Shown piece by piece: positions 6,915 to 43,581 of a DNA stretch of 64,000 bases (the stretch's first letter is position 1; every line of letters starts with the position of its first letter). The notes beneath the pieces were generated by a model that did no database searches, was not told the DNA's origin, and saw only the letters and a program-made list of their open reading frames with translations. The position numbers and the translations under genes are program-made. Source of the DNA: Leptospiria bacterium (GTDB lineage: Bacteria > Spirochaetota > Leptospiria > Turneriellales > CBDBES01); assembly GCA_965262015.1 (NCBI GenBank), contig OZ253494.1, positions 229,308 to 293,307 on the forward strand, read 5' to 3'.

Positions 6915-8846
<1,932 letters not shown>

Positions 8847-8888
8847 TCTTTTAATAAGGCACATGGTGTATATGTTTCTCTTATAATT

Positions 8889-24688: not shown

Positions 24689-24735
24689 TTAGGTCTTACT
24701 ACTACAGTAAAGCTTTAATTCGCACACTGATTACA

Positions 24736-24909
24736 TTAGATTTTTGGATACTGAAGAATAAATATCTTGCATAATACAATCCTTACATACTGGATTTTGT
24801 GATTTGCAAAATTTTCTTCCTAAAAATATTAAATATAAAGGTAGGTCTTTCTAATATTTTTGTGGCAAGAAAGACATTAGATATTTTTTTATTGTTTCAG
24901 GGCTTGTCT
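24736..24909 (-). pseudogene. displaced 3'-terminal fragment of endonuclease III gene (nth); left direct repeat of the island
   Basis: ~174 bp aligning at roughly 90% identity to 42925-43103 (3' end of the intact nth). Encodes ..LMSFLPQKY*KDLPLYLIFLGRKFCKSQNPVCKDCIMQDI.. with TGG>TAG nonsense and no upstream nth body. Confidence 0.85.
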
Positions 24910-25101: not shown

Positions 25102-26967
25102 GTGAGTACTAAATTTTTTACTAATCAAAACAAAAACACCTTATTCAACAAACTCAAAGGTGTTTTTGACAATAATGAAAGTATCAATAACTTTGATGTT
25201 CTGGTAGATTATTTTCGCTTGTCGGGTTATTTTAAATTACGTCCATTTTTAGAGAATATTAACCATATTCGTATTCTGGTGGGTGTTGATGTTGATAGAA
25301 TCGCCCAAAAAATGCAGGCTGATGGCTTATCTCTATTTAAAGGTGATGATAAAAAAACGATTGAAGATTGGCAGGAAAAATTTATTGGTGATGTTAAAAA
25401 AGCCCGCTATGACGAGCAAACTGAGCAGGGCATCAAGCAATTTATTAAGGATGTACAAACAGGGAAAGTGCAAATCAAAGCACATCCAAGCCAGAACATT
25501 CACGCCAAAATATATATATTTCGCCCAGATGATTTTAACCCATATAAGTATGGTAGTGTGATTACTGGCTCATCAAACTTAACCGATGCAGGTATGAGAA
25601 CAAACACCAATCCTAATTATGAATTTAATGTGTTGTTAAATGACTATGAGGATATCCAATTTGCCACCAACGAGTTTGAAAAATTATGGCGGGAAGGTGT
25701 AGAGATATTACCTGAGGCAGCTGAGGTTAGCCTCAAAAAAACCTATTTAGCTGATAACATCACGCCCTATGAACTGTACTTAAAATGCCTGATTGAATAT
25801 TTTGGCACGGAGATTGAATTTGACCCTAACTCTATTAAAGATTTGCCCAGTGGCTTCATGCGTCTGTCCTATCAAATGGATGCCGTGAATGAAGGCTGGC
25901 AAATGCTAAACAAACATAATGGGTTTTTTCTTGCCGATGTGGTGGGTTTAGGTAAAACGATTATTGCCATTTTGATCGCACGCCAGTTTTATCGCTATAA
26001 CGGCTATCCTGATCATCGTTCTAAAATTTTATTGGTTATTCCGCCTGCACTCGAAAAAAACTGGGTCGATACTTTAGAACATTTCGACATTAAAGATGCC
26101 TTTGAGATTATTACCAATGGCAGTTTGCATAAAATCAAAGACCCTAAAAAGTACGACATGGTGATTGTTGATGAGGCACATAAGTTTCGCAACGATACCG
26201 CAGAAGCTTATACCCAGTTACAACTTATTTGCAAAACAAAAACTGTTGATGGCAAGGCTAAAAAAGTGATGTTGATTTCAGCCACACCACTAAATAATCA
26301 CCCTGGTGATTTATACAACCAAATTTTATTATTTCAGGACGGTAATAACTCCACCCTTGATTTTCCACTGGCTAGTTTTTTTACCAAAGCAAAAAAAGAA
26401 TATACAGACATCTCGAACCTACCCGATAAACATCAAGCTGGACAGAAAGCAGCAGAACTATATGAAGAAATTCGTGAAAAAGTGATTACCCCACTTATGG
26501 TGCGCCGAACCCGCACTGATTTATTAGAAAATGATCGCTATAAAAAAGATTTAACCAAACGGGGCATTGTATTCCCCAAAACAACCGCATCCCAACCAGT
26601 CTACGTCAAATTAGAAACACAACTGGAACAATTATACGATAGCACGATTAAAAAAATTAATAACAAAAAACAAGATGCTTCAGGATTATTACATGCTCGT
26701 TATCAAGTGTTGCATTATCTAAAGCCTGAATTCAAACAACAATACAAAAGAGCAGACCTGATTTCTAAGCAGTTAGTTGCTATTATGAAAACACTGTTAC
26801 TTAAAAGAATGGATAGCAGTTTTTATGCATTTAAGCAAACTCTAGATCGTTTTATAACATCCTCAAAAGTTATAATAAAAATGATTGAAGATAATAAAAT
26901 TATCATTGGATCAAACTTAGTTTACTACGTCATCCCCCCCCCCCCAAATGAGATAATAATTTTATGA
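25102..26967 (+). CDS. PLD-family nuclease domain fused to SNF2-family helicase N-lobe; 3'-truncated, likely non-functional
   Basis: HKD motif (NIHAKIYIF...GSSNLT), SNF2 motifs I (VVGLGKT), II (VIVDEAHKFRN), III (LISATPLNN). No helicase C-lobe (motifs IV-VI). ORF ends 20 nt after a C12 tract. GTG start. Confidence 0.8.
   Translation: MSTKFFTNQNKNTLFNKLKGVFDNNESINNFDVLVDYFRLSGYFKLRPFLENINHIRILVGVDVDRIAQKMQADGLSLFKGDDKKTIEDWQEKFIGDVKKARYDEQTEQGIKQFIKDVQTGKVQIKAHPSQNIHAKIYIFRPDDFNPYKYGSVITGSSNLTDAGMRTNTNPNYEFNVLLNDYEDIQFATNEFEKLWREGVEILPEAAEVSLKKTYLADNITPYELYLKCLIEYFGTEIEFDPNSIKDLPSGFMRLSYQMDAVNEGWQMLNKHNGFFLADVVGLGKTIIAILIARQFYRYNGYPDHRSKILLVIPPALEKNWVDTLEHFDIKDAFEIITNGSLHKIKDPKKYDMVIVDEAHKFRNDTAEAYTQLQLICKTKTVDGKAKKVMLISATPLNNHPGDLYNQILLFQDGNNSTLDFPLASFFTKAKKEYTDISNLPDKHQAGQKAAELYEEIREKVITPLMVRRTRTDLLENDRYKKDLTKRGIVFPKTTASQPVYVKLETQLEQLYDSTIKKINNKKQDASGLLHARYQVLHYLKPEFKQQYKRADLISKQLVAIMKTLLLKRMDSSFYAFKQTLDRFITSSKVIIKMIEDNKIIIGSNLVYYVIPPPPNEIIIL
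26934..26945. repeat. C12 homopolymer
   Basis: 12 consecutive C in an AT-rich genome, at the truncation point of the SNF2 ORF. Confidence 0.95.
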
Positions 26968-26996: not shown

Positions 26997-27057
26997 TTTG
27001 TTATCACAGTTGGGGGAGTGGTGAACAGGGGTACAGTGTTAAAATAGATTATTATGA
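26997..27057 (+). repeat. ~60-bp direct repeat, copy 1 (gene-tail/leader unit ending in the ATG of the 2TM gene)
   Basis: tttgttatcacagttgggggagtggtgaacaggggtacagtgttaaaatagattattATGA. Reads as ..FVITVGGVVNRGTVLK* followed 8 nt later by ATG. Confidence 0.85.
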
Positions 27058-27611
27058 CAAGAACTCGTCGAAAAATTATTATTATTTTGTCCAGTATTAC
27101 GTTGTTGGTGGGGGTGGTTTGGGTAATTGATAAACCTAGCTATGGATCAATTACGTTTTGTCTTTCCTCTGCTGTGGTTTTATTTAGTTTTTGGTGGCCA
27201 CTACCAAGAAAAAAATATACTCAAAAGTGTCTTAAAGATATTATTTCTTTTAATTATAGTAATGATGACGGCAGGCACTCTATTGGTAATGATAATCTTT
27301 TATTTGAGACGGCGTGGTCTAAAGCAAGTGATACTTCAATTCATATATATAATGATCCACCATCCATAGACGGGATAGCTGTTGTAAGAAATAAACCAAA
27401 TATTTCAGATATTAGAGATGCCAGTACTTTTGACTTTTCTTCTCGTACAAGAACGCCAGAAGAGGGAGATATAGTTATTTTAAAAAATAAATATGGTAAC
27501 TATGCTGTCTTAAAAATAACGGATATTAAAGATAGTTCTAGATCTGATGAAGTCGATGAGGTTACTTTTGAGTATGTTATTAACCCAGATGGATATAGCG
27601 ATTTTAAATAA
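27054..27611 (+). CDS. small 2TM membrane protein with soluble C-terminal domain (hypothetical)
   Basis: Two hydrophobic helices (IIIILSSITLLVGVVWVI; ITFCLSSAVVLFSFWWPL), then a ~120-aa domain ending GDIVILKNKYGNYAVLKITDIKD..VTFEYVINPDG; no family recognised. Confidence 0.55.
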   Translation: MTRTRRKIIIILSSITLLVGVVWVIDKPSYGSITFCLSSAVVLFSFWWPLPRKKYTQKCLKDIISFNYSNDDGRHSIGNDNLLFETAWSKASDTSIHIYNDPPSIDGIAVVRNKPNISDIRDASTFDFSSRTRTPEEGDIVILKNKYGNYAVLKITDIKDSSRSDEVDEVTFEYVINPDGYSDFK

Positions 27612-27650: not shown

Positions 27651-27711
27651 TTTGTTGTCACAGTTGGGGAGTGGTGGAATAGGAGTACAGCGTTAAAATA
27701 GATTATTATGA
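27651..27711 (+). repeat. ~60-bp direct repeat, copy 2 (ending in the ATG of the PHP-ATPase gene)
   Basis: tttgttgtcacagttggggagtggtggaataggagtacagcgttaaaatagattattATGA. Reads as FVVTVGEWWNRSTALK*; relative to copy 1 two compensating 1-nt indels keep the frame. Confidence 0.85.
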
Positions 27712-30470
27712 AAAAAGAAACAAATAAACGAGGATCGGAATGGCGTAAATGGGATTTACATGTACATACTCCTGAATCGCATGGATATAGAGGAGATTGG
27801 GAAGAATTTAAAACACAATTACAAGATGCTGATTGTGCTGTTATTGGTGTGAATGATTATTTTTCTATTGCTGGATATAAAAAATTAAAAGAAGAAATAG
27901 AAAATAGCACTTTAGATATTGGGGATAAAGTTATTTTGCCAGTTGTCGAAATGAGGATGACTGATTCATTGCAGAAAAATACAACCACAAACAGTGCAAT
28001 TCATTTTAATTTTCATATCATTTTTAACGATATATTGAATGTTGAGGATATTGAAAGTTTCATAAAATCTTTAGAGTATGGAGATAGTAGCATTGGATCT
28101 GACTATTATGATAAAATAAAATTACAAGATACAAAGGTCTCATTTAAAGACACATTAAAAAAATTACAATCTGATAAAAAGTTTCAAAATAACTTTTTAA
28201 TTTGGCTCCCTTACGATGAATATGGAGGAATTAGTGAAATCAATCCTAATTCAGATAGTCGGATAAAAGGAGATTTTACAAAAAAGTCTCATATTCTTGG
28301 CTCATCAAATCAAAAACAAATAGATTTTTTTCTTTGGAAATCTGAATTGGAGGTAGATGGCACTCCAAAATTTAATCAAGAACAATTTAAAAAATGGCTT
28401 GAACATAAAAAAGCTTGTATTAAAGGGAGTGATTCCCATTGTCACAAATACCCAATTGGAAAGTTACGGGACAAGAATTCAAAACCAATTGAAAAATTTT
28501 GTTGGATAAAAGCAAATCCTACTTTTGAAGGGTTAAAACAAATTGTTTATGATCCAGAAGATAGAGTGAAAATTCAAGAATTAAAACCAGAAGAAAAAGA
28601 AGATTATCAAGTAATTGATAAGGTAAAATTTATAGACAATTCTTTTCCCCCTGATGAGATTTTAATAAGTCAAAATTTGACAACAATTATTGGTGGAAAA
28701 TCTACTGGTAAATCAATTCTACTAAGAAACATAGCACAAACGATTGATTTTACTGAAGTTTCAAACAGATTAAAAGAAGTTGGATTGCTAGAATATAAAA
28801 AAGAAGTTTCTAATTTTAATGTTATTTGGAAAGACAAACAAGAAAATGAAAGAAATGAAAGAAATGAAGATAATGGAGTAAACAAGAAAATCATTTATAT
28901 TCCACAATCATATTTGAATAGACTTGTTGATAAAAAAGAAGATAAGACTTCAATTGATGACATCATTAAAAATGTTCTTGAACAGGAAAAGGGTGTGAAA
29001 ACTGTATTTTCTCGCTTACAAGAGCAGAATAGGGATATAGAAAGAGATATTACACAAAGTATTGCAAATATTTTTTATAAAGAAAATGACATAAAAAAAT
29101 TAAGTAAAAGTATTAAAGAAATTGGAGATAAAAAAGGTATCGAATTAGAGATAAAAAAATTAGAGCAAGAAGTTTCCGGACTTGAGAAAAAGACAGGAAT
29201 GAGTGACAATGAAATAAAAAAATATAATAATCTTTTAGAAAAAATTGAAGATTTAAAAAATAATCAAGAAAAAGTAGAAAAGGATATGCAATCTCTTAAA
29301 GTTTTAAAATCTCAAAAAAACTTTGATGTATTTGCAGAAAATCAAAATATACTAGATTCTCTTGATTCGGATATTCAAAAAACCTTAAAAGATAGTTTAC
29401 ATACAGTTATAGAAGAAGCTGAAACAAAATGGAGAGAGCAAATAGAAGTTGAATATAAAAAATTAAAAAAACAAAAAACAGATAATCAAGATGAATTAAA
29501 AAAACAGTATAAATCCTTTAATCCTCTTTTAGAAAAATCTGAAAAATCAGAATCTTTCAAGGAAAAAATAGAAAAATTAAAAGAAGAAGATAAAAAACTG
29601 AAAGCTATAATTCGCCAAGAAGAGGAACATAGAACACTAAAAGATGAGTATATTGCCTTAATAGAAAACATTGCTAAAGATCACTCAAAGTTTTTTGATA
29701 ATTTTTTCAATGCAAAAACAGAAATTTTGAAACAAAGAAGTATTACAGAAGATCAGGATTTAGAATTTAGGATAGAGGTTGTATTTGAAAAGAAATCTTT
29801 TCAAGAGGAATGTATAAATAAAATGTGTGATCAAAGAAAATTAAATCAGTTTCAAGACGTTTCTTTGCAAGATTATAAATATAATAAAGCTGATTTTAAA
29901 AACGATATAGAAAAAATTATTAAAGGTATTTTAAGTGAAAAAGTAACCCTTGTAAACTCGTATTCAAAAAAAGAAGCAATTACGAGATTAGTCAAAAGTT
30001 GGTTTGTTTTTGATTACATAATTAAACAAAATGGAGACGAAATTTCTGAAATGTCTCCAGGAAAAAAATCTTTTGTTTTATTAAAACTTTTGATTGAGCT
30101 TGATACTAGTAAATGCCCAATTTTATTAGATCAGCCAGAAGATGATTTAGACAATCGTTCAATTTATTATGATTTAGTAAAATTTATAAAGACGAAGAAA
30201 AAAGAAAGGCAAATTATTATTGCAACCCATAACCCAAATTTAGTTGCTGGGGCTGACTCAGAATGTATAATCGTTGCAAATCAAGAAGGCAATAAAGCAA
30301 AAAATAAAACTTATAAATTTGAATACGTTCAAGGTGCTTTAGAAAATACTTTTTTAAATAAAGACTCTAAATGTGTTCTAGAACAGAGAGGAATTCAAGA
30401 ACATGTTTGTGATATTCTTGAAGGTGGTAAGACTGCTTTTGAAACAAGAAAGAAAAAATATAACATTTAG
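27708..30470 (+). CDS. PHP-domain phosphoesterase fused to SMC/ABC-type coiled-coil ATPase (Ppl/TrlF-like defence ATPase)
   Basis: N-terminal PHP motifs (WRKWDLHVHTPES, VIGVNDYF, VVEMR, KGSDSHC), Walker A IIGGKSTGKS, ~250-aa K/E-rich coiled coil, Walker B/D-loop PILLDQPEDDLDN, H-loop IIATHNPNL. Confidence 0.8.
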   Translation: MKKETNKRGSEWRKWDLHVHTPESHGYRGDWEEFKTQLQDADCAVIGVNDYFSIAGYKKLKEEIENSTLDIGDKVILPVVEMRMTDSLQKNTTTNSAIHFNFHIIFNDILNVEDIESFIKSLEYGDSSIGSDYYDKIKLQDTKVSFKDTLKKLQSDKKFQNNFLIWLPYDEYGGISEINPNSDSRIKGDFTKKSHILGSSNQKQIDFFLWKSELEVDGTPKFNQEQFKKWLEHKKACIKGSDSHCHKYPIGKLRDKNSKPIEKFCWIKANPTFEGLKQIVYDPEDRVKIQELKPEEKEDYQVIDKVKFIDNSFPPDEILISQNLTTIIGGKSTGKSILLRNIAQTIDFTEVSNRLKEVGLLEYKKEVSNFNVIWKDKQENERNERNEDNGVNKKIIYIPQSYLNRLVDKKEDKTSIDDIIKNVLEQEKGVKTVFSRLQEQNRDIERDITQSIANIFYKENDIKKLSKSIKEIGDKKGIELEIKKLEQEVSGLEKKTGMSDNEIKKYNNLLEKIEDLKNNQEKVEKDMQSLKVLKSQKNFDVFAENQNILDSLDSDIQKTLKDSLHTVIEEAETKWREQIEVEYKKLKKQKTDNQDELKKQYKSFNPLLEKSEKSESFKEKIEKLKEEDKKLKAIIRQEEEHRTLKDEYIALIENIAKDHSKFFDNFFNAKTEILKQRSITEDQDLEFRIEVVFEKKSFQEECINKMCDQRKLNQFQDVSLQDYKYNKADFKNDIEKIIKGILSEKVTLVNSYSKKEAITRLVKSWFVFDYIIKQNGDEISEMSPGKKSFVLLKLLIELDTSKCPILLDQPEDDLDNRSIYYDLVKFIKTKKKERQIIIATHNPNLVAGADSECIIVANQEGNKAKNKTYKFEYVQGALENTFLNKDSKCVLEQRGIQEHVCDILEGGKTAFETRKKKYNI

Positions 30471-30538
30471 GAAGAAAAAAATCAAGGTAATTCTCAAAAT
30501 GATACAATAACCGTTCATGCTATAATTTTTTATATAAT

Positions 30539-30737
30539 ATGAGCACAATTGAACTAATAGAAAACGAAAAAAGAGATATTTTAAAATGTATTGAAGCAGG
30601 GAAACCGTTGCCAGACAGATACCGTTTTTTGTTATTTGAAGACAAAAAAGAAGTTGAACTTGTTTGGAATGGTAAAACGCAGGAAGTAAACAAAATAATT
30701 TTACCTTTTCAAACAATTGAAGTAGTAGATGAACCAA
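30539..30737 (+). pseudogene. 5' fragment (about 66 codons) of a type III-like adenine DNA methyltransferase
   Basis: LLFEDKKEVELVWNGKTQEVNKIILPFQTIEVVDEPRA is the conserved N-terminus of Mod-type methylases as I recall it. The catalytic body is absent, and the fragment joins the type IIG tail copy at ~30738. Confidence 0.6.
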
Positions 30738-31245
30738 GGGCGGTATAAAATAAAATATGAAATGGCAGATGAATATATTGTTGGCGGGTTTAGGATCGAC
30801 ACAATTCAGTCAAATCAGGATAATAACTTTCTTATTTCTCAAGAAGTTACTGGAACCAATGATGTGAGAAGATTGCATTTTGCGGTGAAAGACAATAACA
30901 ATGAGCGGGTATTGTGGGGAGATTCAGTGAATAAGACTCTGCTTAAAAATCAAGGCGAAAACCACTATTTGCTGGCTCTGCTAAACGCTAAATTTATGGA
31001 TTGGTATTTCCGAATCACTTCATCCAACAATCATGTTCAAGGCTATGAAATAGAACAACTCCCCATCCCTAAAATATCAAAACCAGAACAACAGCCGTTT
31101 ATAGATTTAGTGGATAAAATTCTCACCACCAAACAACAGGGGCAAGACACCAGCACACTAGAAGCCCAAATAGATAAGATGGTTTATGAGCTTTATGACC
31201 TTACTGAGGATGAGATAAAAATTGTTGAGGGTGAGAAATGAGTAA
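30738..31245 (+). pseudogene. duplicated 3' ~0.5 kb of the type IIG R-M gene (TaqI-like C-terminal specificity region)
   Basis: 508-bp direct repeat of 37084-37591 (170 aa, roughly 90% identical to the C-terminus of the 1217-aa enzyme), including the overlapping ATGA junction to the next gene. Confidence 0.85.
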
Positions 31246-33586
31246 CGACGAAGCAAAAAACTTTCTTCGTAAAGGCAATGCTCATCTTGCAGAAAAGAAA
31301 TTTGACCAGGCTATTAAAGACTATAGTCAAGCCATTAAATTAAACCCTGAATATACTTCAGCTTATTACAATCGTGGCGGGGCTTACATTAGTAAAGGTG
31401 AGTATGACCGTGCTATTGAGAACTATAGTCAAGTCATTGCATTAGACCCTAAAAGTACTTCAGCTTATTACGCTCGTGGCGGGATTTACATTAATAAAGG
31501 TGAGCATGACCGTGCTATTAAAGATTATAGTCAAGTCATTGCATTGGACCCTAAAAGTACTGATGCTTATTACGCTCGTGGTGGGGCTTATAGCAGGAAA
31601 GGTGAGTATGACTGTGCTATCGAGGACTATAGTCAAGTCATTGCCTTGGACTCTAAAAATACTTCAGCTTTTTTCAATCGTGGTTTGGCTTATAGTAGTA
31701 AAGGTGAGTATGACCGTGCTATTGAGGACTATAGTCAAGTCATTGCATTAGACCCTAAAAATACTTCAGCTTATTACGCTCGTGGTTTGGCTTATAGTAG
31801 TAAAGGTGAACATGACCGTGCTATCGAGGACTATAATCAAGTCATTGCCTTGGACCCTGAATATATTTCAGCTTTTTTCAATCGTGGCGGGGCTTATAGC
31901 AGTAAAGGTGAGTATGACTGTGCTATCGAGGACTATAGTCAAGCCATTGCATTGGACCCTAAAATGGCTGATGCTTATTATGCTCGTGGCGATGTTTACA
32001 TTAGTAAAGGTGAGTATGACCGTGCTATTGAGGACTACAGTCAAGTCATTGCATTGGACCCTAAAAATACTAATGTTTTTTTCAATCGTAGCGGGGTTTA
32101 TAGCAGGGAAGGTGAACATGACCGTGCTATCGAGGACTATAATCAAGTCATTGCATTAGACCCCAAAAATACTTCAGCTTATTACGCTCGTGGCGGGGTT
32201 TACCTTAATAAAGGTGAGTATGACTGTGCTATTGAGGATTACAGTCAAGTCATTGCCTTGGACCCTAAAAGTACTAATGCTTTTTTCAATCGTGGCGGGG
32301 TTTATAGCAGGAAAGGTGAGTATGACCGTGCTATTAAAGACTATAGTCAAGTCATTGCCTTGGACCCTAAAAATACTGATGCTTTTTTCAATCGTGGCAA
32401 GGTTTATAGTAGTAAAGGTGAACATGACCGTGCTATTGAGGGCTACAGTCAAGTCATTGCCTTGGACCCTAAAAATACTGATGCTTTTTTCAATCGTGGC
32501 AAGGTTTACAGTAGTAAAGGTGAACATGACCGTGCTATTGAAGACTATAATCAAGTCATTGCATTAGACCCTAAAAATACTTCAGATTATTACGCTCGTG
32601 GTGGGGCTTATAGCAGGAAAGGTGAGTATGACCGTGCTATCGAGGATTACAGTCAAGTCATTGCATTAGACTCTAAAAATACTTCAGCTTATTACGCTCG
32701 TGGCGGGGTTTACCTTAATAAAGGTGAGTATGACTGTGCTATCGAGGACTATAGTCAAGTCATTGCATTAGACTCTAAAAATACTGATGCTTATTACGCT
32801 CGTGGTTTGGCTTATAGTAGTAAAGGTGAACATGGCCACGCTATTGAGGATTACAATCAAGTTATTGCATTGGACCCTAAAAATACTGATGCTTTTTTCA
32901 ATCGTGGCGGGGTTTATAGTAATAAAGGTGAACATAACCGTGCTATTGAAGACTATAGTCAAGTCATTAAACTAAATCCTGAATATATTTCAGCTTATTA
33001 CAATCGTGGTTTGGCTTATCGAATTATAGGCAAAGAACAAGAGGCTATAAAAGATTTTAAAGAGGTAAATCAATTAGACCCGACTGTTATTCCAAAGGAG
33101 CAAGTTAAGAAAACAGATGAGAAAGTTACAGAAGTTGAAGAAACAGTTAAGAAAACAGATGAGAAGGTTACAGAAGTTCAAAATTTTCAGAGCATTTTCA
33201 AAGAGTTAAGAGACGAGTACAAAAAAGGAGAGGGTAGGTGGTTTTGGGCAAGTGTTTTGATTATCATTGGTGTTTTCATTGGTTTATGGTACTCAATATT
33301 ATGTCTTAAAGCAGACTATAAAAATTTGTATCCTCTTTATGTTTTCTCATCAATTATTACATTTATTATTATCCGCCAATACACCAACGCTAAACAGCTA
33401 CGAATTGAAGCCAGCAACCGGTTAGCGATGGCAAAGATGTTTGAAAAAATACAACAAACTAAAGACAATCCACATTATCAAGATTTCATACGCAAAATAA
33501 TTGACAGCATTGCCTATTCAATGCATAAAAATCAACAAGAATCGATAACACCAATTGATGAGATACTAAAACACTTTAAAAAATAA
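31238..33586 (+). CDS. TPR-repeat protein (18 repeats) with C-terminal 2TM domain
   Basis: 18 consecutive 34-aa TPR units (consensus AYYARGGAYSSKGEYDRAIEDYSQVIALDPKNTS), a duplicated VKKTDEKVTEV segment, then two TM helices (WFWASVLIIIGVFIGLWYSIL; LYVFSSIITFIIIRQY) and a ~90-aa helical tail. Confidence 0.85.
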   Translation: MSNDEAKNFLRKGNAHLAEKKFDQAIKDYSQAIKLNPEYTSAYYNRGGAYISKGEYDRAIENYSQVIALDPKSTSAYYARGGIYINKGEHDRAIKDYSQVIALDPKSTDAYYARGGAYSRKGEYDCAIEDYSQVIALDSKNTSAFFNRGLAYSSKGEYDRAIEDYSQVIALDPKNTSAYYARGLAYSSKGEHDRAIEDYNQVIALDPEYISAFFNRGGAYSSKGEYDCAIEDYSQAIALDPKMADAYYARGDVYISKGEYDRAIEDYSQVIALDPKNTNVFFNRSGVYSREGEHDRAIEDYNQVIALDPKNTSAYYARGGVYLNKGEYDCAIEDYSQVIALDPKSTNAFFNRGGVYSRKGEYDRAIKDYSQVIALDPKNTDAFFNRGKVYSSKGEHDRAIEGYSQVIALDPKNTDAFFNRGKVYSSKGEHDRAIEDYNQVIALDPKNTSDYYARGGAYSRKGEYDRAIEDYSQVIALDSKNTSAYYARGGVYLNKGEYDCAIEDYSQVIALDSKNTDAYYARGLAYSSKGEHGHAIEDYNQVIALDPKNTDAFFNRGGVYSNKGEHNRAIEDYSQVIKLNPEYISAYYNRGLAYRIIGKEQEAIKDFKEVNQLDPTVIPKEQVKKTDEKVTEVEETVKKTDEKVTEVQNFQSIFKELRDEYKKGEGRWFWASVLIIIGVFIGLWYSILCLKADYKNLYPLYVFSSIITFIIIRQYTNAKQLRIEASNRLAMAKMFEKIQQTKDNPHYQDFIRKIIDSIAYSMHKNQQESITPIDEILKHFKK
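31250..33085 (+). repeat. 102-bp coding tandem array (TPR units) with high nucleotide identity between units
   Basis: Recurring strings such as gaccgtgctattgaggactatagtcaagtcattgcattagaccctaaaaatact at 102-bp periodicity. This produces stop-free alternative frames on both strands. Confidence 0.85.
33104..33180 (+). repeat. 42-bp direct tandem duplication inside the TPR gene
   Basis: gttaagaaaacagatgagaa(a/g)gttacagaagtt occurs twice, 42 bp apart. Confidence 0.8.
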
Positions 33587-33675: not shown

Positions 33676-33782
33676 GTATAAATAAAACAGCGGTCAAGCA
33701 TATTGAAACCCAAATCGACCAGATGGTTTATAAACTTTATGACCTAACCGATGATGAGATAAAAGTTATTGAGGAGGGATAA
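33676..33782 (+). pseudogene. orphan R-M gene 3' tail remnant (copy B)
   Basis: Encodes ..AVKHIETQIDQMVYKLYDLTDDEIKVIEEG*. Near-identical in its 5' part to the remnant at 41028-41141. Confidence 0.75.
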
Positions 33783-33933
33783 TAGCAGAACTTGTAATTG
33801 TGATATCAAAAAATATGACGTTAATAGCCACATAGAAGACAATCCCAACAAGCAACAAAAATCTATAAATAAAAATCTAAAAATTATTATTTCACAATCT
33901 TATGTATAAATCATTAATAAATAGAACTAAATA

Positions 33934-36900
33934 ATGAGCCTATTACTATTAAAACAAACCTACAATCGAGATAATTACCTTGATTTTCTAGCGGACAAAT
34001 TTAAGTTTTCCAAGAATCTTGCCCCTATCAGCATAGAAAATAATGATGTTAAATTTTTTCAACGACTAGGCACAATCACCACCCATGATGATAAAGAACT
34101 TCCCGTCTTTGAAATTTATATCAAACCCAACACCCAATTAAGCAGAAATCGTGTGCAATTACGTAATTTAGTTGCTAAGCAAATCCAAACAGAAGACGGT
34201 GCCTTGGCGGTTTATATTGATGCGGATAACCAGCAATGGCGGTTTAGTTTTATTGCCATTGAATATAGCTTTTCCGCTGAAGGTATTAAAAAAGAGCAAA
34301 CAGCCAGCAAACGCTTTACTTACCTATTTGGCGAGAACACCAAAACCAGAACCGCAGAAGAAAGATTTAAAAAACTTAACAACCAATCCACCCTGCAAGA
34401 CCTAAAAGAAGATTTTGCCGTTGAAGCATTGAATAAAGAATTTTACGATAAACTTTATAGATGGTATGAAAAGGCACACAATCAAGTTACTTTCCCAAAT
34501 GATGAAAAAATGGAAAATCACATCCAAACCAGCCTGATTCGCCTTCTCACTCGCCTGCTATTCATATGGTTTATTAAAGAGAAAAAACTCATTAATCCTG
34601 ATTTATTTAACCAAGAGAAATTACAAAATCTGATTGATTACAACCAACCCAGCAGTTTTTATAAAGCGATATTACAAAACCTATTTTTTGCTACGCTCAA
34701 TGTTGAAATTAATAAACGTGATTTTAGAGATGAAGAAGATACTCAAGGTGCAAATAAAGACTACGGCAATCAATACCGTTATCGTTATCACGCTTTAGTA
34801 AAAAATAAGGGAAAATGGAAATCGTCCTTTACTGAAACACCTTTTTTAAATGGTGGTTTATTTGAAAGTTTGGATAAAAAATTAAATGAATTTGTATTAG
34901 ATGAAAATAATAATACTAAAAAAAATAGCTACGGTGATCAAATAATCAACCAAGAACATAAGAAACTTATTGATGATTGGAATGCAAATACTCGCCCAGA
35001 AAAAGCCATGATACGGATGGAGGGATTTTCCGAACACAAAAAGAACCCATTAAAAATTAGCAATCAGCTTTTTTTCAACAACGATGAAAATGATTTAGGC
35101 TTGATTGATTTATTTAATCAATACCAATTTACCGTCGAAGAAAGCACCTCTCTAGACATAGAAGTTGCCCTTGACCCCGAACTATTGGGCAAGGTGTTTG
35201 AAAACCTGCTTGCCAGTTCTAATCCAGAAACAGGACAACAGGCTCGCAAAGCCACTGGCAGTTTTTACACCCCACGAGAAATTGTTAATTACATGGTGGA
35301 TGAAAGCCTGAAAGCGTATTTTTATCAGCACACAGATCTAACAGACAAGCAGATCAATACCCTGTTTGATGAATCTGAATTCACCAAGCAAAAAAACACT
35401 TTGAGTAAGCAACAAACGATAACCCTGATCCACGCCATAGATAAGCTAAAAATTCTTGACCCAGCGGTGGGCAGTGGTGCTTATCCGATGGGGGTTTTAC
35501 AACGGCTGGTGCTAATTTTAGAAAAAGTGGATACAGAAAACACCCACTTCAAACAACAGCAAATCGACAAGGCACAACAAATCCCCGATGAAGCCAGTCG
35601 TACTAGTGCCATAGCGGCGATAGAGCAGGTTTTTTCACAACAAAACCAGCATAACGCTTATGGCAAGAAATTAATGCTAATCGAAAACTGCATTTATGGC
35701 GTGGACATCCAACCCATCGCCATTCAAATATGCAAACTACGCTTTTTTATCAGCTTAACCGTTGAGCAAACCCCCAACCAGGACAAAGCCGATAATTACA
35801 CCATCAAAGCCCTGCCTAATTTAGAAACCAAATTTATTGTTGCCAATAGCCTGTTGCCTTTGGGCGAGATGCCCACATATATGTTTAAGGGGAAAATAGA
35901 AGAACTACAACAACAATTAGCTAAAATACGGCATAAGCATTTTAGTGCCAAGACCTTAAAAACTAAACACGAATACCGCAACAAAGATAAGCAATTAAGA
36001 CAAGAGTTATCTCAATTACTGCGGGAAGATTATCAACAGAATTGCGTCTGGGCAGAGGCAATGAAAATTGTCGATACAAAGACAAATAAATTGATAAAAA
36101 ATAAAAAACATTACCAGAATAAAATAGATGGAGAAAAACAAAGAACGTTTTCATCGGATAATACAAACCGTGCTAGTGATAAAGAGCAACAGAATTGGCA
36201 AGATAAAATTATAGACTTAGAAGAAAATATTGCGTCAGAAAAAAAGATAATGCTACTCATATCCCACCATGATGAATCTCTAAAAAAGAAAAATATATGG
36301 GGAAAAGCTGAAACCACGGCAAAAGAAAACGCTGAAAAATTTTATGCCAGAGTGAGAAAAATCGCCAACTGGGATTTATATAATCAAAATGCTGTAGCTG
36401 ATTGGTTTCATCTTGAATGGCAATTTGGTGTTAAAAACGGCTTCGATATTGTTATTGGTAATCCACCTTATGCCCAAGTAAAAAGAAATGTCTATGCCAA
36501 AACTAACTTTCCTTATTCACAAGGAATAGACAAGGGCAAACAAAATCTTTACAAATTATTTGTAGAATTGTCCCATAATCTTTGCAAAAATAACGGCGTT
36601 GCCACAATGATTGTGCAAAGTAGTCTAATGGGCGACTTATCCTCTGCTGGAACACGGCAATTATTATTAGATAAAACACAACTCAAGCACATTATCGAGT
36701 TTCCAAAAATGGCAACATCAAGAGAAAGACAGGTATTTAACTCAGTTACACAAGGCACCTGTATTTATCAATTTATTAAACAATCCGTTGATAATTGCAC
36801 TATTGATATATCCATCAACAATGACAGTGAAAGTATTAAAAAACTAATTTTTTCACCCATTGAAAAGGCAACAATACATACACTTTATCCAAAATTTTTA

Positions 36901-37587
36901 TATTTCCCAAAAATTGCAACAGGCAACACCACTATTTTGCAAAAAATAGCTAATAACCCTTCAATCAAACCGCTTTCAGCCTTTATTCAATCAATGCAAC
37001 AGGGCGATATAAATTTAACCGCCCATTCATCTCAATTTTCCAATGAATTAACCTCTGTTAAACTGATGCGTGGTAGACATGTTGGGCAGTATACAATCAA
37101 ATATGAAATGGTAGATGAATATATTGTTGCAGGGTTTAAGACTGATAAAATCCAGCAAAATCAGGATAATAACTTTCTTATTTCTCAGCAAGTTACTGGG
37201 ACCAATGATGCCAGGAGATTGCATTTTGCGGTGAAAGATAATAACAATGAGCGGCTACTGTGGGGAAATTCAGTGAATAAAACTCTACTTAAAAACCAAA
37301 GTGAAAACCACTATTTTATGGCTCTGCTAAACGCTAAATTTATGGATTGGTATTTTCGAATCACTTCATCCAATAATCATGTTCAAGGCTATGAAATAGA
37401 ACAACTCCCCATCCCTAAAATATCAAAACCAGAACAACAGCCATTTATAGATTTAGTGGATAAAATTCTCACCGCCAAACAACATGGGCAAGACACCAGC
37501 ACACTAGAAACCGAAATAGATAAGATGGTTTACAAACTTTATGACCTCACTGAGGAGGAGATAAAAATTATTGAGGGTGAGAAATGA
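33934..37587 (+). CDS. type IIG restriction enzyme / gamma-class N6-adenine DNA methyltransferase fusion (Eco57I/PglX-like) with TaqI-like C-terminal specificity domain
   Basis: 1217 aa. Motifs GSFYTPREIVNYMV, SAM-binding ILDPAVGSGAY, catalytic IVIGNPPYAQV, C-terminal ..QVTGTND..GYEIEQLPIP..IDKMVYKLYDLTEEEIKIIEGEK. The N-terminal ~400 aa plausibly forms the nuclease/translocation part, but no catalytic motif was verified. Confidence 0.8.
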   Translation: MSLLLLKQTYNRDNYLDFLADKFKFSKNLAPISIENNDVKFFQRLGTITTHDDKELPVFEIYIKPNTQLSRNRVQLRNLVAKQIQTEDGALAVYIDADNQQWRFSFIAIEYSFSAEGIKKEQTASKRFTYLFGENTKTRTAEERFKKLNNQSTLQDLKEDFAVEALNKEFYDKLYRWYEKAHNQVTFPNDEKMENHIQTSLIRLLTRLLFIWFIKEKKLINPDLFNQEKLQNLIDYNQPSSFYKAILQNLFFATLNVEINKRDFRDEEDTQGANKDYGNQYRYRYHALVKNKGKWKSSFTETPFLNGGLFESLDKKLNEFVLDENNNTKKNSYGDQIINQEHKKLIDDWNANTRPEKAMIRMEGFSEHKKNPLKISNQLFFNNDENDLGLIDLFNQYQFTVEESTSLDIEVALDPELLGKVFENLLASSNPETGQQARKATGSFYTPREIVNYMVDESLKAYFYQHTDLTDKQINTLFDESEFTKQKNTLSKQQTITLIHAIDKLKILDPAVGSGAYPMGVLQRLVLILEKVDTENTHFKQQQIDKAQQIPDEASRTSAIAAIEQVFSQQNQHNAYGKKLMLIENCIYGVDIQPIAIQICKLRFFISLTVEQTPNQDKADNYTIKALPNLETKFIVANSLLPLGEMPTYMFKGKIEELQQQLAKIRHKHFSAKTLKTKHEYRNKDKQLRQELSQLLREDYQQNCVWAEAMKIVDTKTNKLIKNKKHYQNKIDGEKQRTFSSDNTNRASDKEQQNWQDKIIDLEENIASEKKIMLLISHHDESLKKKNIWGKAETTAKENAEKFYARVRKIANWDLYNQNAVADWFHLEWQFGVKNGFDIVIGNPPYAQVKRNVYAKTNFPYSQGIDKGKQNLYKLFVELSHNLCKNNGVATMIVQSSLMGDLSSAGTRQLLLDKTQLKHIIEFPKMATSRERQVFNSVTQGTCIYQFIKQSVDNCTIDISINNDSESIKKLIFSPIEKATIHTLYPKFLYFPKIATGNTTILQKIANNPSIKPLSAFIQSMQQGDINLTAHSSQFSNELTSVKLMRGRHVGQYTIKYEMVDEYIVAGFKTDKIQQNQDNNFLISQQVTGTNDARRLHFAVKDNNNERLLWGNSVNKTLLKNQSENHYFMALLNAKFMDWYFRITSSNNHVQGYEIEQLPIPKISKPEQQPFIDLVDKILTAKQHGQDTSTLETEIDKMVYKLYDLTEEEIKIIEGEK

Positions 37588-38036
37588 GTAAGCCCATTTA
37601 CACCATTATTGGTGGGGTCAATGGTTTGGGTAAAACGACTTTTGCACTCGATTATCTGGTGAACAATGTTGCTTGCAAGTATTTTATCAACGCCGACTTA
37701 ATTGCTGTTGGCTTGTCGCCCCTAGATTCAACTCAGCAATCAATAACCGCCAGTCGCCTGTTTTTACAACAAATTAAACAAGCCGTTATGCGTAAGAAAA
37801 ATTTTGCCTTTGAAACTACTTTATCGGGTAGAAGTTACTTGAAGCTCATTCGTCAATTACAGGCAGATGATTGGTTTGTTGAGCTGATTTATCTCTACTT
37901 GCCGAGCGTGCAATTATCTATTGAGCGAGTTGCAGAAAGAGTTAAGCATGGCGGGCATGATATTGCACTAACATCTATGGATAGAACTAGTTGCAACTAC
38001 GATTTGAGCCAACCGATGAGGCGTGCAAACTCGTAA
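37584..38036 (+). CDS. zeta-toxin-like P-loop kinase/ATPase (COG4185-type), C-terminus replaced by repeat sequence
   Basis: Walker A IIGGVNGLGKTTF. The start overlaps the R-M stop (ATGA). The last 21 aa (TSMDRTSCNYDLSQPMRRANS) come from the 93-bp repeat, so the native C-terminus is missing. Confidence 0.65.
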   Translation: MSKPIYTIIGGVNGLGKTTFALDYLVNNVACKYFINADLIAVGLSPLDSTQQSITASRLFLQQIKQAVMRKKNFAFETTLSGRSYLKLIRQLQADDWFVELIYLYLPSVQLSIERVAERVKHGGHDIALTSMDRTSCNYDLSQPMRRANS

Positions 38037-38061
38037 GATGAAATAAAAATCATTGAGGAGG
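37969..38061 (+). repeat. 93-bp perfect direct repeat, copy 1 (divergent R-M tail scar)
   Basis: 100% identical to 42261-42353; contains ..YDLSQPMRRANS* followed by DEIKIIEE. Confidence 0.9.
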
Positions 38062-41027: not shown

Positions 41028-41141
41028 GTATAAATAAATAAAACAGCGGTCAAGCATATTGAAATCCAAATAGATAAGATGGTTTATCAGCTTTACCGCC
41101 TCACGGCTGATGAAATAAAAATCATTGAGGGTGTAAAATAA
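41028..41141 (+). pseudogene. orphan R-M gene 3' tail remnant (copy E)
   Basis: ..AVKHIEIQIDKMVYQLYRLTADEIKIIEGVK*; shares gtataaataaa..aaacagcggtcaagcatattgaaa with copy B. Confidence 0.75.
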
Positions 41142-41710: not shown

Positions 41711-42328
41711 ATGAAAAAAATCAGACACAAAGTATTCATAAGTTATCATCATGCTAATGACCAAAAATACAAGGAATATCTTTTACGGCTTAATGAACAT
41801 GGCGATATATTTATAGATGCTTCGGTAGATACTGGTGACGTAAACGAAGAATTATCTGATCAAGGTATACGTCGACTTATACGAGATGATTACTTGCGAG
41901 ACTCAACAGTAACCATTGTTCTTGTTGGAACTGAAACAAAGAATAGAAAACATGTTGATTGGGAAATATACTCAAGCATGTTTGATGGGACTGTAAACAA
42001 AAAATCCGGTGTGCTTGTTATTCAATTACCTACTACGAACTGCACAGAATGTATAGCTGCGCATGGAGATCATGAGAAAGCCATCATCTACCCCAATAGT
42101 AATTGGGTCAATATTGATACCAAAGCTGAATATGAGTCAAAGTATCCATATATGCCTGATAGAATAATTGATAATTTATTACAATCTGGAGCCAAGATTT
42201 CCATAACTAATTGGGATAAAGTCATTGATAATGTTAAAAATTTATGTTTTTTGATTGATGTAACATCTATGGATAGAACTAGTTGCAACTACGATTTGAG
42301 CCAACCGATGAGGCGTGCAAACTCGTAA
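41711..42328 (+). CDS. TIR-like domain protein, ThsB/DUF1863 type (C-terminal 21 aa derived from the 93-bp repeat)
   Basis: KVFISYHHANDQKY..DASVDTGD..SDQGIRRLIRDDYLRDSTVTIVLVGTETKNRKHVDWEIYSS parallels ThsB-type TIR (FxSxHxxD, xVxxVLIGxxTxxRxWVxxEI with the putative catalytic Glu). Confidence 0.75.
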   Translation: MKKIRHKVFISYHHANDQKYKEYLLRLNEHGDIFIDASVDTGDVNEELSDQGIRRLIRDDYLRDSTVTIVLVGTETKNRKHVDWEIYSSMFDGTVNKKSGVLVIQLPTTNCTECIAAHGDHEKAIIYPNSNWVNIDTKAEYESKYPYMPDRIIDNLLQSGAKISITNWDKVIDNVKNLCFLIDVTSMDRTSCNYDLSQPMRRANS

Positions 42329-42353
42329 GATGAAATAAAAATCATTGAGGAGG
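42261..42353 (+). repeat. 93-bp perfect direct repeat, copy 2
   Basis: Identical to 37969-38061; supplies the stop of the TIR ORF and ends 4 nt before the next ATG. Confidence 0.9.
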
Positions 42354-42924: not shown

Positions 42925-43581
42925 TTAGACTATATTTTGGGATGCTGAAGGACAAATATCTTGCATGATACAATCCTTACATACTGGATTTTGTGATTTA
43001 CAAAATTTTCTTCCTAAAAATATTAAGTATAAAGGTAGGTCTTTCCAATATTTTTTTGGCAAGAAAGACATGAGATCTTTTTCAATTGTTTCGGGGCTTG
43101 TCTTAGAGGTAAGGCCTAGACGTTGTGTTATACGACGAACATGTGTATCCACTACAATTCCTGGTGTTTTATTAAAAGCAACTGCCATTATAACATTGGC
43201 TGTTTTTCTACCAATTCCTGGTAGTTGAGTTAAAATACTAAAATCATCTGGTATTTTACCATTATATTCTTTAACTAGTATATTAGCTAATTTTTTTAAA
43301 TTGCGTGCTTTATTTTTGTAAAAACCAGTGGAATAGACAATTTCTTCCAGTCTAGAAAGGGTAATTTTGTCTAAAGTAAACATATCAGGACATTCAGTAA
43401 AAAGTAGTTTTGTCACTATATTTACACGGATATCTGTACATTGTGCAGATAAGATCACTGCCATAGATAATTGTTCTACACTATTGTGCTCTAGAGGGGG
43501 CTCTGCTTTACCAAAATAATTGTCTAGTCTGTTAAAGACGATGCCTAAGTAGGGTTCTTTACGATAATTCCTAGCAGTCAT
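42925..43581 (-). CDS. nth: endonuclease III (DNA glycosylase/AP lyase)
   Basis: HhH-GPD motif LPGIGRKTANVIM, VDTHV, C-terminal 4Fe-4S cluster CKSQNPVCKDCIMQDIC. Confidence 0.9.
   Translation of the reverse strand: MTARNYRKEPYLGIVFNRLDNYFGKAEPPLEHNSVEQLSMAVILSAQCTDIRVNIVTKLLFTECPDMFTLDKITLSRLEEIVYSTGFYKNKARNLKKLANILVKEYNGKIPDDFSILTQLPGIGRKTANVIMAVAFNKTPGIVVDTHVRRITQRLGLTSKTSPETIEKDLMSFLPKKYWKDLPLYLIFLGRKFCKSQNPVCKDCIMQDICPSASQNIV

Follow-up and report, generated by a model that had tools for sequence, protein, structure and literature searches.

Relation to described systems

The two-transmembrane (2TM) modules of the SLATT and DUF4231 type are reportedly, from work by Burroughs et al. in 2015, effectors of nucleotide-signalling conflict systems. 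They combine a small transmembrane (TM) hairpin and a cytoplasmic helical extension with variable sensor parts, and they lie in defence neighbourhoods. A protein of similar general layout is encoded in a stretch of 64,000 nucleotides from a Leptospiria bacterium (Spirochaetota; assembly GCA_965262015.1, contig OZ253494.1, positions 229,308 to 293,307), referred to here as the window. This protein, TPR-2TM, has 782 residues, and its gene (31238..33586, on the forward strand like its parts and the restriction-modification features described below) is intact, without internal stop, and is the sole copy in the genome. It carries an array of tetratricopeptide repeats (TPR), a charged linker and a C-terminal membrane module, and it begins on the 3' end, or tail, of a restriction-modification (R-M) gene. 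TPR-2TM resembles proteins that join a sensor to a membrane effector, yet the family models place it neither among the SLATT systems nor among the NTPases (nucleoside triphosphatases) with TPR sensors. A role in phage defence is plausible. Judged from its gene context, TPR-2TM may be a mobile, R-M-coupled membrane sensor-effector for defence, a reading to which we give a probability of roughly 0.4.

The initial annotation saw a loose resemblance of the C-terminal module to SLATT/DUF4231. A similar way of working is plausible, but kinship is not supported. The module of the window protein gives nothing at E≤1 against the SLATT models (PF18181-PF18186, PF18160) or DUF4231 (PF14015), and none of its relatives matches DUF4231. 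SLATT models are touched below threshold by two of 27 relatives, in the TM hairpin only: P0026 reaches 16.7 bits with SLATT_5, for which the cut-off is 29.5, and one relative reaches E 0.003 with SLATT_4. Both matches are level with chance matches to TMEM70, tetraspanin and similar membrane families. Members of SLATT_4 and DUF4231, sought for profile comparison, were not found in 301 Spirochaetota genomes or in the control genomes. TPR-2TM also differs in having no adjoining SMODS cyclase, SLOG or TIR partner. The scanned neighbours of the mapped loci (R-M genes, PADLOC defence candidates and housekeeping genes) include no cyclase or SLOG gene, and the ThsB-TIR gene of the window lies 8 kb away, in a different cassette. 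The signature RQYTNAK...NRLAMAKMFE is peculiar to TPR-2TM.

Avs and the bacterial NLR-like STAND NTPases also occur in defence islands and use a TPR array as the variable recognition part, and the Pfam TPR-S model scores 44.7 bits on the window array. In TPR-2TM, in contrast, there is no NTPase domain (no NACHT or NB-ARC family is among the Pfam and NCBIfam matches shown, and residues 6-617 are all TPR), the effector is a membrane hairpin, and the TPR units are far more uniform. RexB of lambda RexAB, AbiZ and holin-like proteins would share with TPR-2TM only the proposed end result, collapse of the infected cell's membrane by a small helical membrane protein. They have no sequence or fold relation to TPR-2TM, whose family is absent from viral contigs and which fuses sensor and effector in one chain. 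LapB (YciM) is likewise a cytoplasmic TPR array at the inner membrane, but its anchor is N-terminal and single-pass, it has a rubredoxin domain, and it is a core gene; the window protein scores 172 bits with the NCBIfam LapB model, for which the cut-off is 430. The eukaryotic-like TPR proteins of sponge symbionts have arrays of variable repeat number and, like TPR-2TM, are found in symbionts of sponges and mussels. TPR-2TM differs from them in its predicted cytoplasmic location, the lack of a secretion signal, its link to the R-M tail and its conserved membrane module. At the level of gene organization, the hsdS-prrC/rloC-hsdR arrangement offers a parallel, with an accessory defence gene inserted in and co-expressed with an R-M operon; one locus (L003), a Type I operon with a distant TPR-2TM homologue between hsdS and hsdR, is organized exactly so. 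The usual TPR-2TM junction is different, being a conserved R-M 3' end that recurs before each cassette and carries a ribosome-binding site and a stop/start overlap.

The C-terminal membrane module

The C-terminal module (33182..33583, 134 amino acids, residues 649-782) defines a rare unnamed family, which we call TPR-2TM or the RQYTNAK module. No family in Pfam, NCBIfam, PADLOC or the PDB matches it, and scans of the module and of 22-27 relatives with Pfam, NCBIfam, PADLOC and PHROGs give no consistent family. With PADLOC-DB 2.0 the module matches zero families, and the matches of the whole protein, which come from its repeats, are confined to models that contain TPR. Sequence searches of the PDB, whether started from the single sequence or from a profile, return nothing below E 0.03. 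The structural comparison proposed in the initial annotation also yields no significant match, Foldseek with the low-confidence models giving 0 matches in the PDB and nothing below E 4 in BFVD. No account of such an architecture turned up in the literature search. When 1.84 billion representative proteins are scanned exhaustively with HMMER, the module appears in 42 clusters, at the C-terminal end in all 42. The N-terminal parts are mostly TPR arrays, with pentapeptide repeats in P0042 and a helical domain of unknown type in P0002, so that, as the initial annotation had thought worth checking, the module is fused to more than one kind of N-terminal part. The short forms of the family carry only a coiled coil.

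A viral source for the family is rejected, since IMG/VR (2.9 million viral contigs) holds no relative. Identity with a holin is rejected as well, for the same reason and because the protein is 782 residues long; holin phrog_6918 is matched by one of 22 relatives, at E 5e-4. The NCBIfam equivalogs MamA, Ycf3, SycD/LcrH, PilW and YbgF are set aside as repeat-summation artefacts. Their cut-offs are exceeded because six to eight separate TPR stretches are summed, and the models describe proteins of about 120-235 amino acids. Automatic annotation could misname the TPR-2TM gene through such summed scores.

The module consists of an amphipathic helix, TM1, a short loop, TM2, a basic and highly conserved juxtamembrane helix and two further helices. 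The initial annotation had proposed two TM helices and a helical tail; the tail and one strong helix stand, and the second helix is only weaker. TM1 (33245..33307, residues 670-690) is strongly hydrophobic, with Kyte-Doolittle values of 2.3-2.6, and TM2 (33323..33373, residues 696-712) has values of 1.76 over 17 amino acids and 1.3 over 19. Over 19 amino acids TM2 exceeds the 1.6 threshold in 6 of 22 homologues. Two AlphaFold2 models, usable for secondary structure only because of their low confidence (pLDDT 65 and 64), agree in forming one continuous helix from the linker, the amphipathic helix and TM1, and a second helix from TM2 and the conserved motif, followed by two short helices.

Lys and Arg residues number five before TM1, two in the loop and six after TM2, and inspection of the N-terminal sequence finds no signal peptide. 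Based on this absence and on the positive charges that flank the hairpin on either side, the N- and C-termini are probably both cytoplasmic, with the hairpin in the inner membrane. The family signature, IRQYTNAKxLRIEAxNRLAMAKMFE, directly follows the second hydrophobic helix. It reads IIRQYTNAKQLRIEASNRLAMAKMFEK in the window protein (33368..33448, residues 711-737), at the cytoplasmic end of TM2. In alignment A4, R65, Q66, Y67, T68, N69, A70, K71, R80 and A82 are invariant. In the wider alignment A2, W20 and F55 are invariant and S24, R65, Y67, N79, R80 and K85 nearly so. The window protein keeps all of these columns, and it has the features by which the family is recognized: a Trp before TM1, two hydrophobic helices, and R-Q-Y-T-N-A-K...N-R...K after TM2.

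The charged linker between the array and the module (33089..33181, 31 amino acids, residues 618-648) contains the duplicated segment VKKTDEKVTEV noticed in the initial annotation, at residues 623-633 and 637-647. Linkers of 17, 24 or 31 amino acids occur in the homologues, differing by exact steps of seven (one heptad), and the repeat finder TRF gives a 21-bp period; both features fit a coiled-coil stalk. The seven-residue steps preserve the heptad register between the TPR array and TM1.

The TPR array

The array comprises 18 consecutive units of 34 amino acids (31253..33088, residues 6-617), as initially annotated. Pfam TPR_1 (E 2e-163) scores 524 bits and TPR_2 434 bits, each with 18 stretches and above the gathering score, and TRF gives a period of 102 bp, 16.7 copies, 81% matches and a score of 1986. 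The units had been described as nearly identical at the nucleotide level, from which recent expansion was concluded; this was overstated. Internal units 2-17 are 74-93% identical in nucleotide sequence, with a mean of about 83%, and the proportion of synonymous differences (pS) between units is 0.28 per site. Most of the variable codon positions have two alternative codons, which suggests that a small set of older unit types makes up the array as a mosaic, and that it is not a very recent amplification. A super-period of three units (306 bp), suspected by eye, is not supported by the unit identity matrix.

Amino acid variation among the units is found at positions 2, 4-6, 9, 10, 12 and 13 of helix A and at positions 17, 19, 25 and 34, and helix B is almost invariant. 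The ratio of nonsynonymous to synonymous change (dN/dS) is 0.12 at the conserved, structural positions, where pS is 0.33. At the twelve variable positions it is 1.9, a value inflated by picking these positions after their variation had been seen.

The comparison suggested in the initial annotation shows that the number of repeats is not invariant: homologues have 4, 5, 6, 7, 8, 9, 11, 12, 15 or 18 units, in steps of 34 amino acids, and the window array, with 18, is the longest. Variants from Bathymodiolus symbionts that share a common N-terminus also differ by steps of about 34 amino acids. The first and last units are conserved across homologues, and the 16 internal units of the window protein are lineage-specific. 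They are 74% identical to each other and 51% identical to the units of other homologues, which are 64% identical among themselves. The array was therefore built or homogenized in its own lineage.

The R-M tail junction

The start codon of the TPR-2TM gene overlaps, as ATGA, the stop codon of a 170-amino acid open reading frame (ORF; 30729..31241) that corresponds to the last ~170 codons of a Type IIG-like R-M gene and includes the end of a TaqI_C specificity domain (E 2e-6). This remnant is 87-89% identical to 37084-37587, the end of the intact 1217-amino acid Type IIG-like protein (33934..37587; Eco57I methylase and TaqI_C), and the latter is a homologue of the protein whose gene precedes TPR-2TM in other genomes. 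The tail itself (copy A, 31134..31240) ends in ...MVYELYDLTEDEIKIVEGEK and a stop codon and provides a GAGG Shine-Dalgarno-like motif. An orphan copy B (33678..33784), ending in ...MVYKLYDLTDDEIKVIEEG and two stop codons, closes the cassette, and further copies lie at 37480-37586 and 41034-41140. The TPR-2TM gene is thus bracketed by tails, as the initial annotation had described. The same annotation pointed to a shared overlap with the zeta-like P-loop gene (37584..38036), and here too the sequence agrees: the junction of TPR-2TM, GAGGGTGAGAAATGAGTAA, is identical to that between the intact R-M gene and the zeta-like gene.

In all fetched loci (designated L), ORFs were mapped and compared with the window proteins. 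The R-M tail junction precedes 17 gene copies, which are spread over 15 other loci and at least seven phyla, and together with the PADLOC candidates found in the same position elsewhere this supports the idea of a defence-cassette slot. The junction encodes ...MVYxLYxLTxDEIKIIExxK followed by a stop codon and ends in ATTATTGAGGnnnnAAAATGA, with GAGG and ATGA. In the window, as in the mobile subfamily generally, the start codon overlaps the stop codon of such an ...EIKIIExxK tail. Since the conserved tail carries both a ribosome-binding motif and the overlapping stop and start codons, TPR-2TM is predicted to be translationally coupled to whichever ORF ends in the tail.

Seven loci (L004, L005, L007, L008, L014, L017 and L019) show the 4-bp overlap with an intact Type IIG-like gene, whose product is 46-71% identical to the 1217-amino acid protein of the window, and upstream of this R-M gene there is often one for PLD-SNF2 (70-79% identical). 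Another gene stands between the R-M gene and TPR-2TM in L001/L011, L006, L009 and L012, and only a short tail remnant precedes TPR-2TM in L010 and L016, as in the window. Other occupants of the slot are the PADLOC candidates PDC-S21 (DUF4917), PDC-M30A/B, PDC-S31 and PDC-M19A/B, and a pair of a C5-methylase and a restriction endonuclease. R-M genes of this family also persist without an intact cassette, L027 and L031 keeping only remnants. L050, which has a variant without TPR, is a similar island and is counted as a defence island. L051 is a defence island too, with a short variant following the R-M gene. At L051:2532-7869 an inverted TaqI_C fragment, encoded on the opposite strand, and a tyrosine recombinase come after the R-M gene, and this arrangement looks like a specificity-domain inversion switch beside the short TPR-2TM variant.

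Distribution of the family

TPR-2TM is carried by two of 81 related genomes, that of the window and G001, a Leptospiria metagenome-assembled genome (MAG) from the same family that contains locus L009. Its close homologues, 49-82% identical in the C-terminal module, are found in symbiont MAGs from at least seven phyla. Those with 62-82% identity in the module belong to Pseudomonadota, Bacteroidota, Spirochaetota, Fibrobacterota, Verrucomicrobiota and Nitrospinota and come from MAGs of Ca. Spongiihabitans/Poriferihabitaceae, Polaribacter, Fibrobacteria, Rubritalea, Nitrospinales, Nitrospina and Pseudohongiella and of sponge symbionts in Cycloclasticus and Methylococcales. The tree contradicts taxonomy, joining Fibrobacterota with Verrucomicrobiota (support 100/99) and Pseudohongiella with Nitrospinales (99/99), and a single metagenome sample yielded three different TPR-2TM variants. 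As a cassette, the close subfamily moves horizontally and crosses phyla. A search of 241 million metagenome records finds 16 loci, all of the distant subfamily type.

Two islands contain two TPR-2TM copies, each behind its own tail (L016, 3278-4585 and 8795-10408; L019, 5740-7155 and 9098-10411). In L009 a TPR-only protein of 414 amino acids (7631-8875) is encoded just upstream of TPR-2TM. In L004, L005 and L007, zeta-like P-loop genes whose products are 86-90% identical to that of the window (residues 1-134) lie 2-4 kb downstream of TPR-2TM; their recurrence near TPR-2TM in other phyla indicates that larger parts of the island travel together.

State of the window island

The island in the window is decaying: the body of the R-M gene upstream of TPR-2TM is deleted, and the PLD-SNF2 gene (25102-26967) is truncated to 621 amino acids, compared with 1087-1114 in L004, L006 and L014. 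The remnant leading into the TPR-2TM gene starts with a 69-amino acid ORF (30539..30748), a putative methylase-like N-terminus joined to the R-M tail copy. Ahead of these remnant ORFs lies the only visible promoter for TPR-2TM, a consensus match ATGATA-16-TATAAT with TG (30499..30526), which is weak evidence since the consensus scan finds as many such sites as expected in shuffled sequence.

The PLD-SNF2 gene is followed by a pair consisting of a 185-amino acid ORF and a TrlF-family ATPase gene. Directly upstream of each member of the pair is a 64-nt leader (26997-27060 and 27651-27714, 83-89% identical), both copies ending in ATTATTATGA. The 3' end of the zeta-like gene is replaced by a 93-100-nt repeat (37962-38061 and 42254-42353, identical over 93 nt), which gives the zeta-like and ThsB-TIR ORFs the same last 21 codons (..TSMDRTSCNYDLSQPMRRANS, then a stop codon); a 22-nt piece of it recurs at 41109-41130. 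Direct repeats of 179 bp (24731-24909 and 42925-43103, 91% identical) flank the whole ~18 kb defence island. Outside the window, the region C1:971845-989543 has three Type IIG-like paralogues, four more tail copies and no TPR-2TM. The paralogues are 73-85% identical over their first ~700 residues and about 40-59% over the methylase and specificity regions. A second copy of PLD-SNF2 in this region (C1:983781-985574) is 91% identical over 598 amino acids.

Possible function and alternatives

In the defence reading, TPR-2TM would be a stand-alone accessory defence gene with a product anchored in the inner membrane. The TPR superhelix would use its variable concave face to bind a ligand that derives from the phage or is induced by infection, and binding would alter the packing of the stalk. 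The spread of repeat numbers (4-18) and the clustering of variation in helix A, beside an almost invariant helix B, are sensor-like features. Hairpins and juxtamembrane helices might then assemble into a membrane lesion or pore, so that the infected cell stops, as in abortive infection. The pore step is the least supported part of this proposal. A bolder form, which we consider doubtful, takes the R-M tail as a universal docking site for promoterless defence cassettes, TPR-2TM being the commonest cassette and also a new single-protein abortive-infection family. The tail would offer homology for recombination, a ribosome-binding site and the ATGA re-initiation signal, giving an integron-like array without an integrase, shared across phyla in sponge and mussel holobionts. 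Ligand capture by the length-variable TPR would drive the coiled-coil stalk and the hairpin into a pore.

Several observations weigh against a role in defence. TPR-2TM has no homology to any validated defence protein or effector, so that its function is read from the neighbourhood only. The hydrophobicity of TM2 is only moderate, confidence is low in both structure models, and a specific sensor would not be expected to consist of sixteen internal units so much alike. In the window itself the upstream R-M body is gone and the partner PLD-SNF2 is truncated. All of the named hosts live as symbionts or associates of marine invertebrates, which could point to a host-related role. The initial annotation had counted homologues lying mostly outside defence contexts as contrary evidence, and this holds in part: the close subfamily sits on R-M tails, whereas the distant subfamily (33-44% identity), which occurs in chemosynthetic symbionts, is found among housekeeping genes. 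The order lysA, TPR-2TM, yhbY, lpxB is syntenic in the symbionts of Bathymodiolus septemdierum and B. azoricus, the homologue of L021 (Ca. Ruthturnera) adjoins a pseudouridine synthase gene, and those of L028 and L029, in MAGs of Gammaproteobacteria, adjoin the genes for TilS and TyrRS.

These hosts and neighbourhoods would fit a protein of host interaction or symbiont physiology, a membrane-anchored, eukaryotic-like TPR scaffold carried as cargo in an R-M island. TPR proteins are enriched in sponge symbionts, and all named sources of TPR-2TM are symbionts of sponges, mussels or clams or MAGs co-resident with them. The scarcity of the family in metagenomes (only 16 loci), the synteny of its distant subfamily in Bathymodiolus symbionts and its core neighbourhoods in L021, L028 and L029 agree with such a role. 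A TPR array in the cytoplasm, where the charge distribution and the lack of a signal peptide place it, is unlikely to touch the host directly. In addition, 17 gene copies retain the R-M tail junction, an intact R-M gene lies just upstream in 11 loci, defence candidates occupy the same slot elsewhere, and only 2 of 81 related genomes carry the gene. On balance a host-related function seems rather unlikely. The coupling to R-M genes can also be read as the mark of an accessory R-M subunit, in which the TPR array would dock onto the R-M enzyme, perhaps at its conserved acidic C-terminal tail, or onto PLD-SNF2, and either hold restriction at the membrane, the entry site of foreign DNA, or regulate the enzyme. 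C-terminal peptides are classical ligands of TPR domains, TPR-2TM travels together with the R-M and PLD-SNF2 genes, the ATGA coupling recurs in seven loci from several phyla, and the tail peptide is kept upstream even where the R-M body is lost. A simpler account of this retention is the history of recombination together with the ribosome-binding site that the tail contains. The ATGA coupling also serves other cassettes (L009, L012, L031 and the zeta-like gene at 37584), and TPR-2TM also occurs in the Type I operon of L003 and with no R-M gene nearby in L002, L021 and L029. Conversely, R-M genes do without an intact TPR-2TM in L027, L031 and the three paralogues at about 972-990 kb of the window genome, and the subunit explanation is unlikely.

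The decay of the island raises a further alternative, an inert passenger: an over-expanded repeat gene with no current function. The truncated PLD-SNF2 (621 of about 1100 amino acids), the R-M tail remnants, the deleted R-M body upstream, an hsdR fragment and the repeat-truncated ends of the zeta and ThsB genes all speak for degeneration, and broken copies of the family occur in L015, L027, L028 and L031. The TPR-2TM gene of the window does not share this condition. Its repetitive ORF of 2349 bp has no stop or frameshift, dN/dS at the structural TPR positions is low despite the synonymous divergence there, and all family-invariant residues of the C-terminal module are kept. An inert gene is therefore quite improbable.

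Implications

If TPR-2TM does serve in defence, the family would be of very simple design, the repeat sensor passing straight into the membrane effector and no enzyme lying between the two, and its natural series of 4-18 repeats would allow one to ask how repeat length tunes recognition. The tail junction shows how an R-M gene can offer further defence genes both a landing pad and a platform for their expression, and it documents gene flow across phyla among co-resident symbionts. If host association is instead the true role, TPR-2TM would mark a shared symbiont trait that travels with defence islands.

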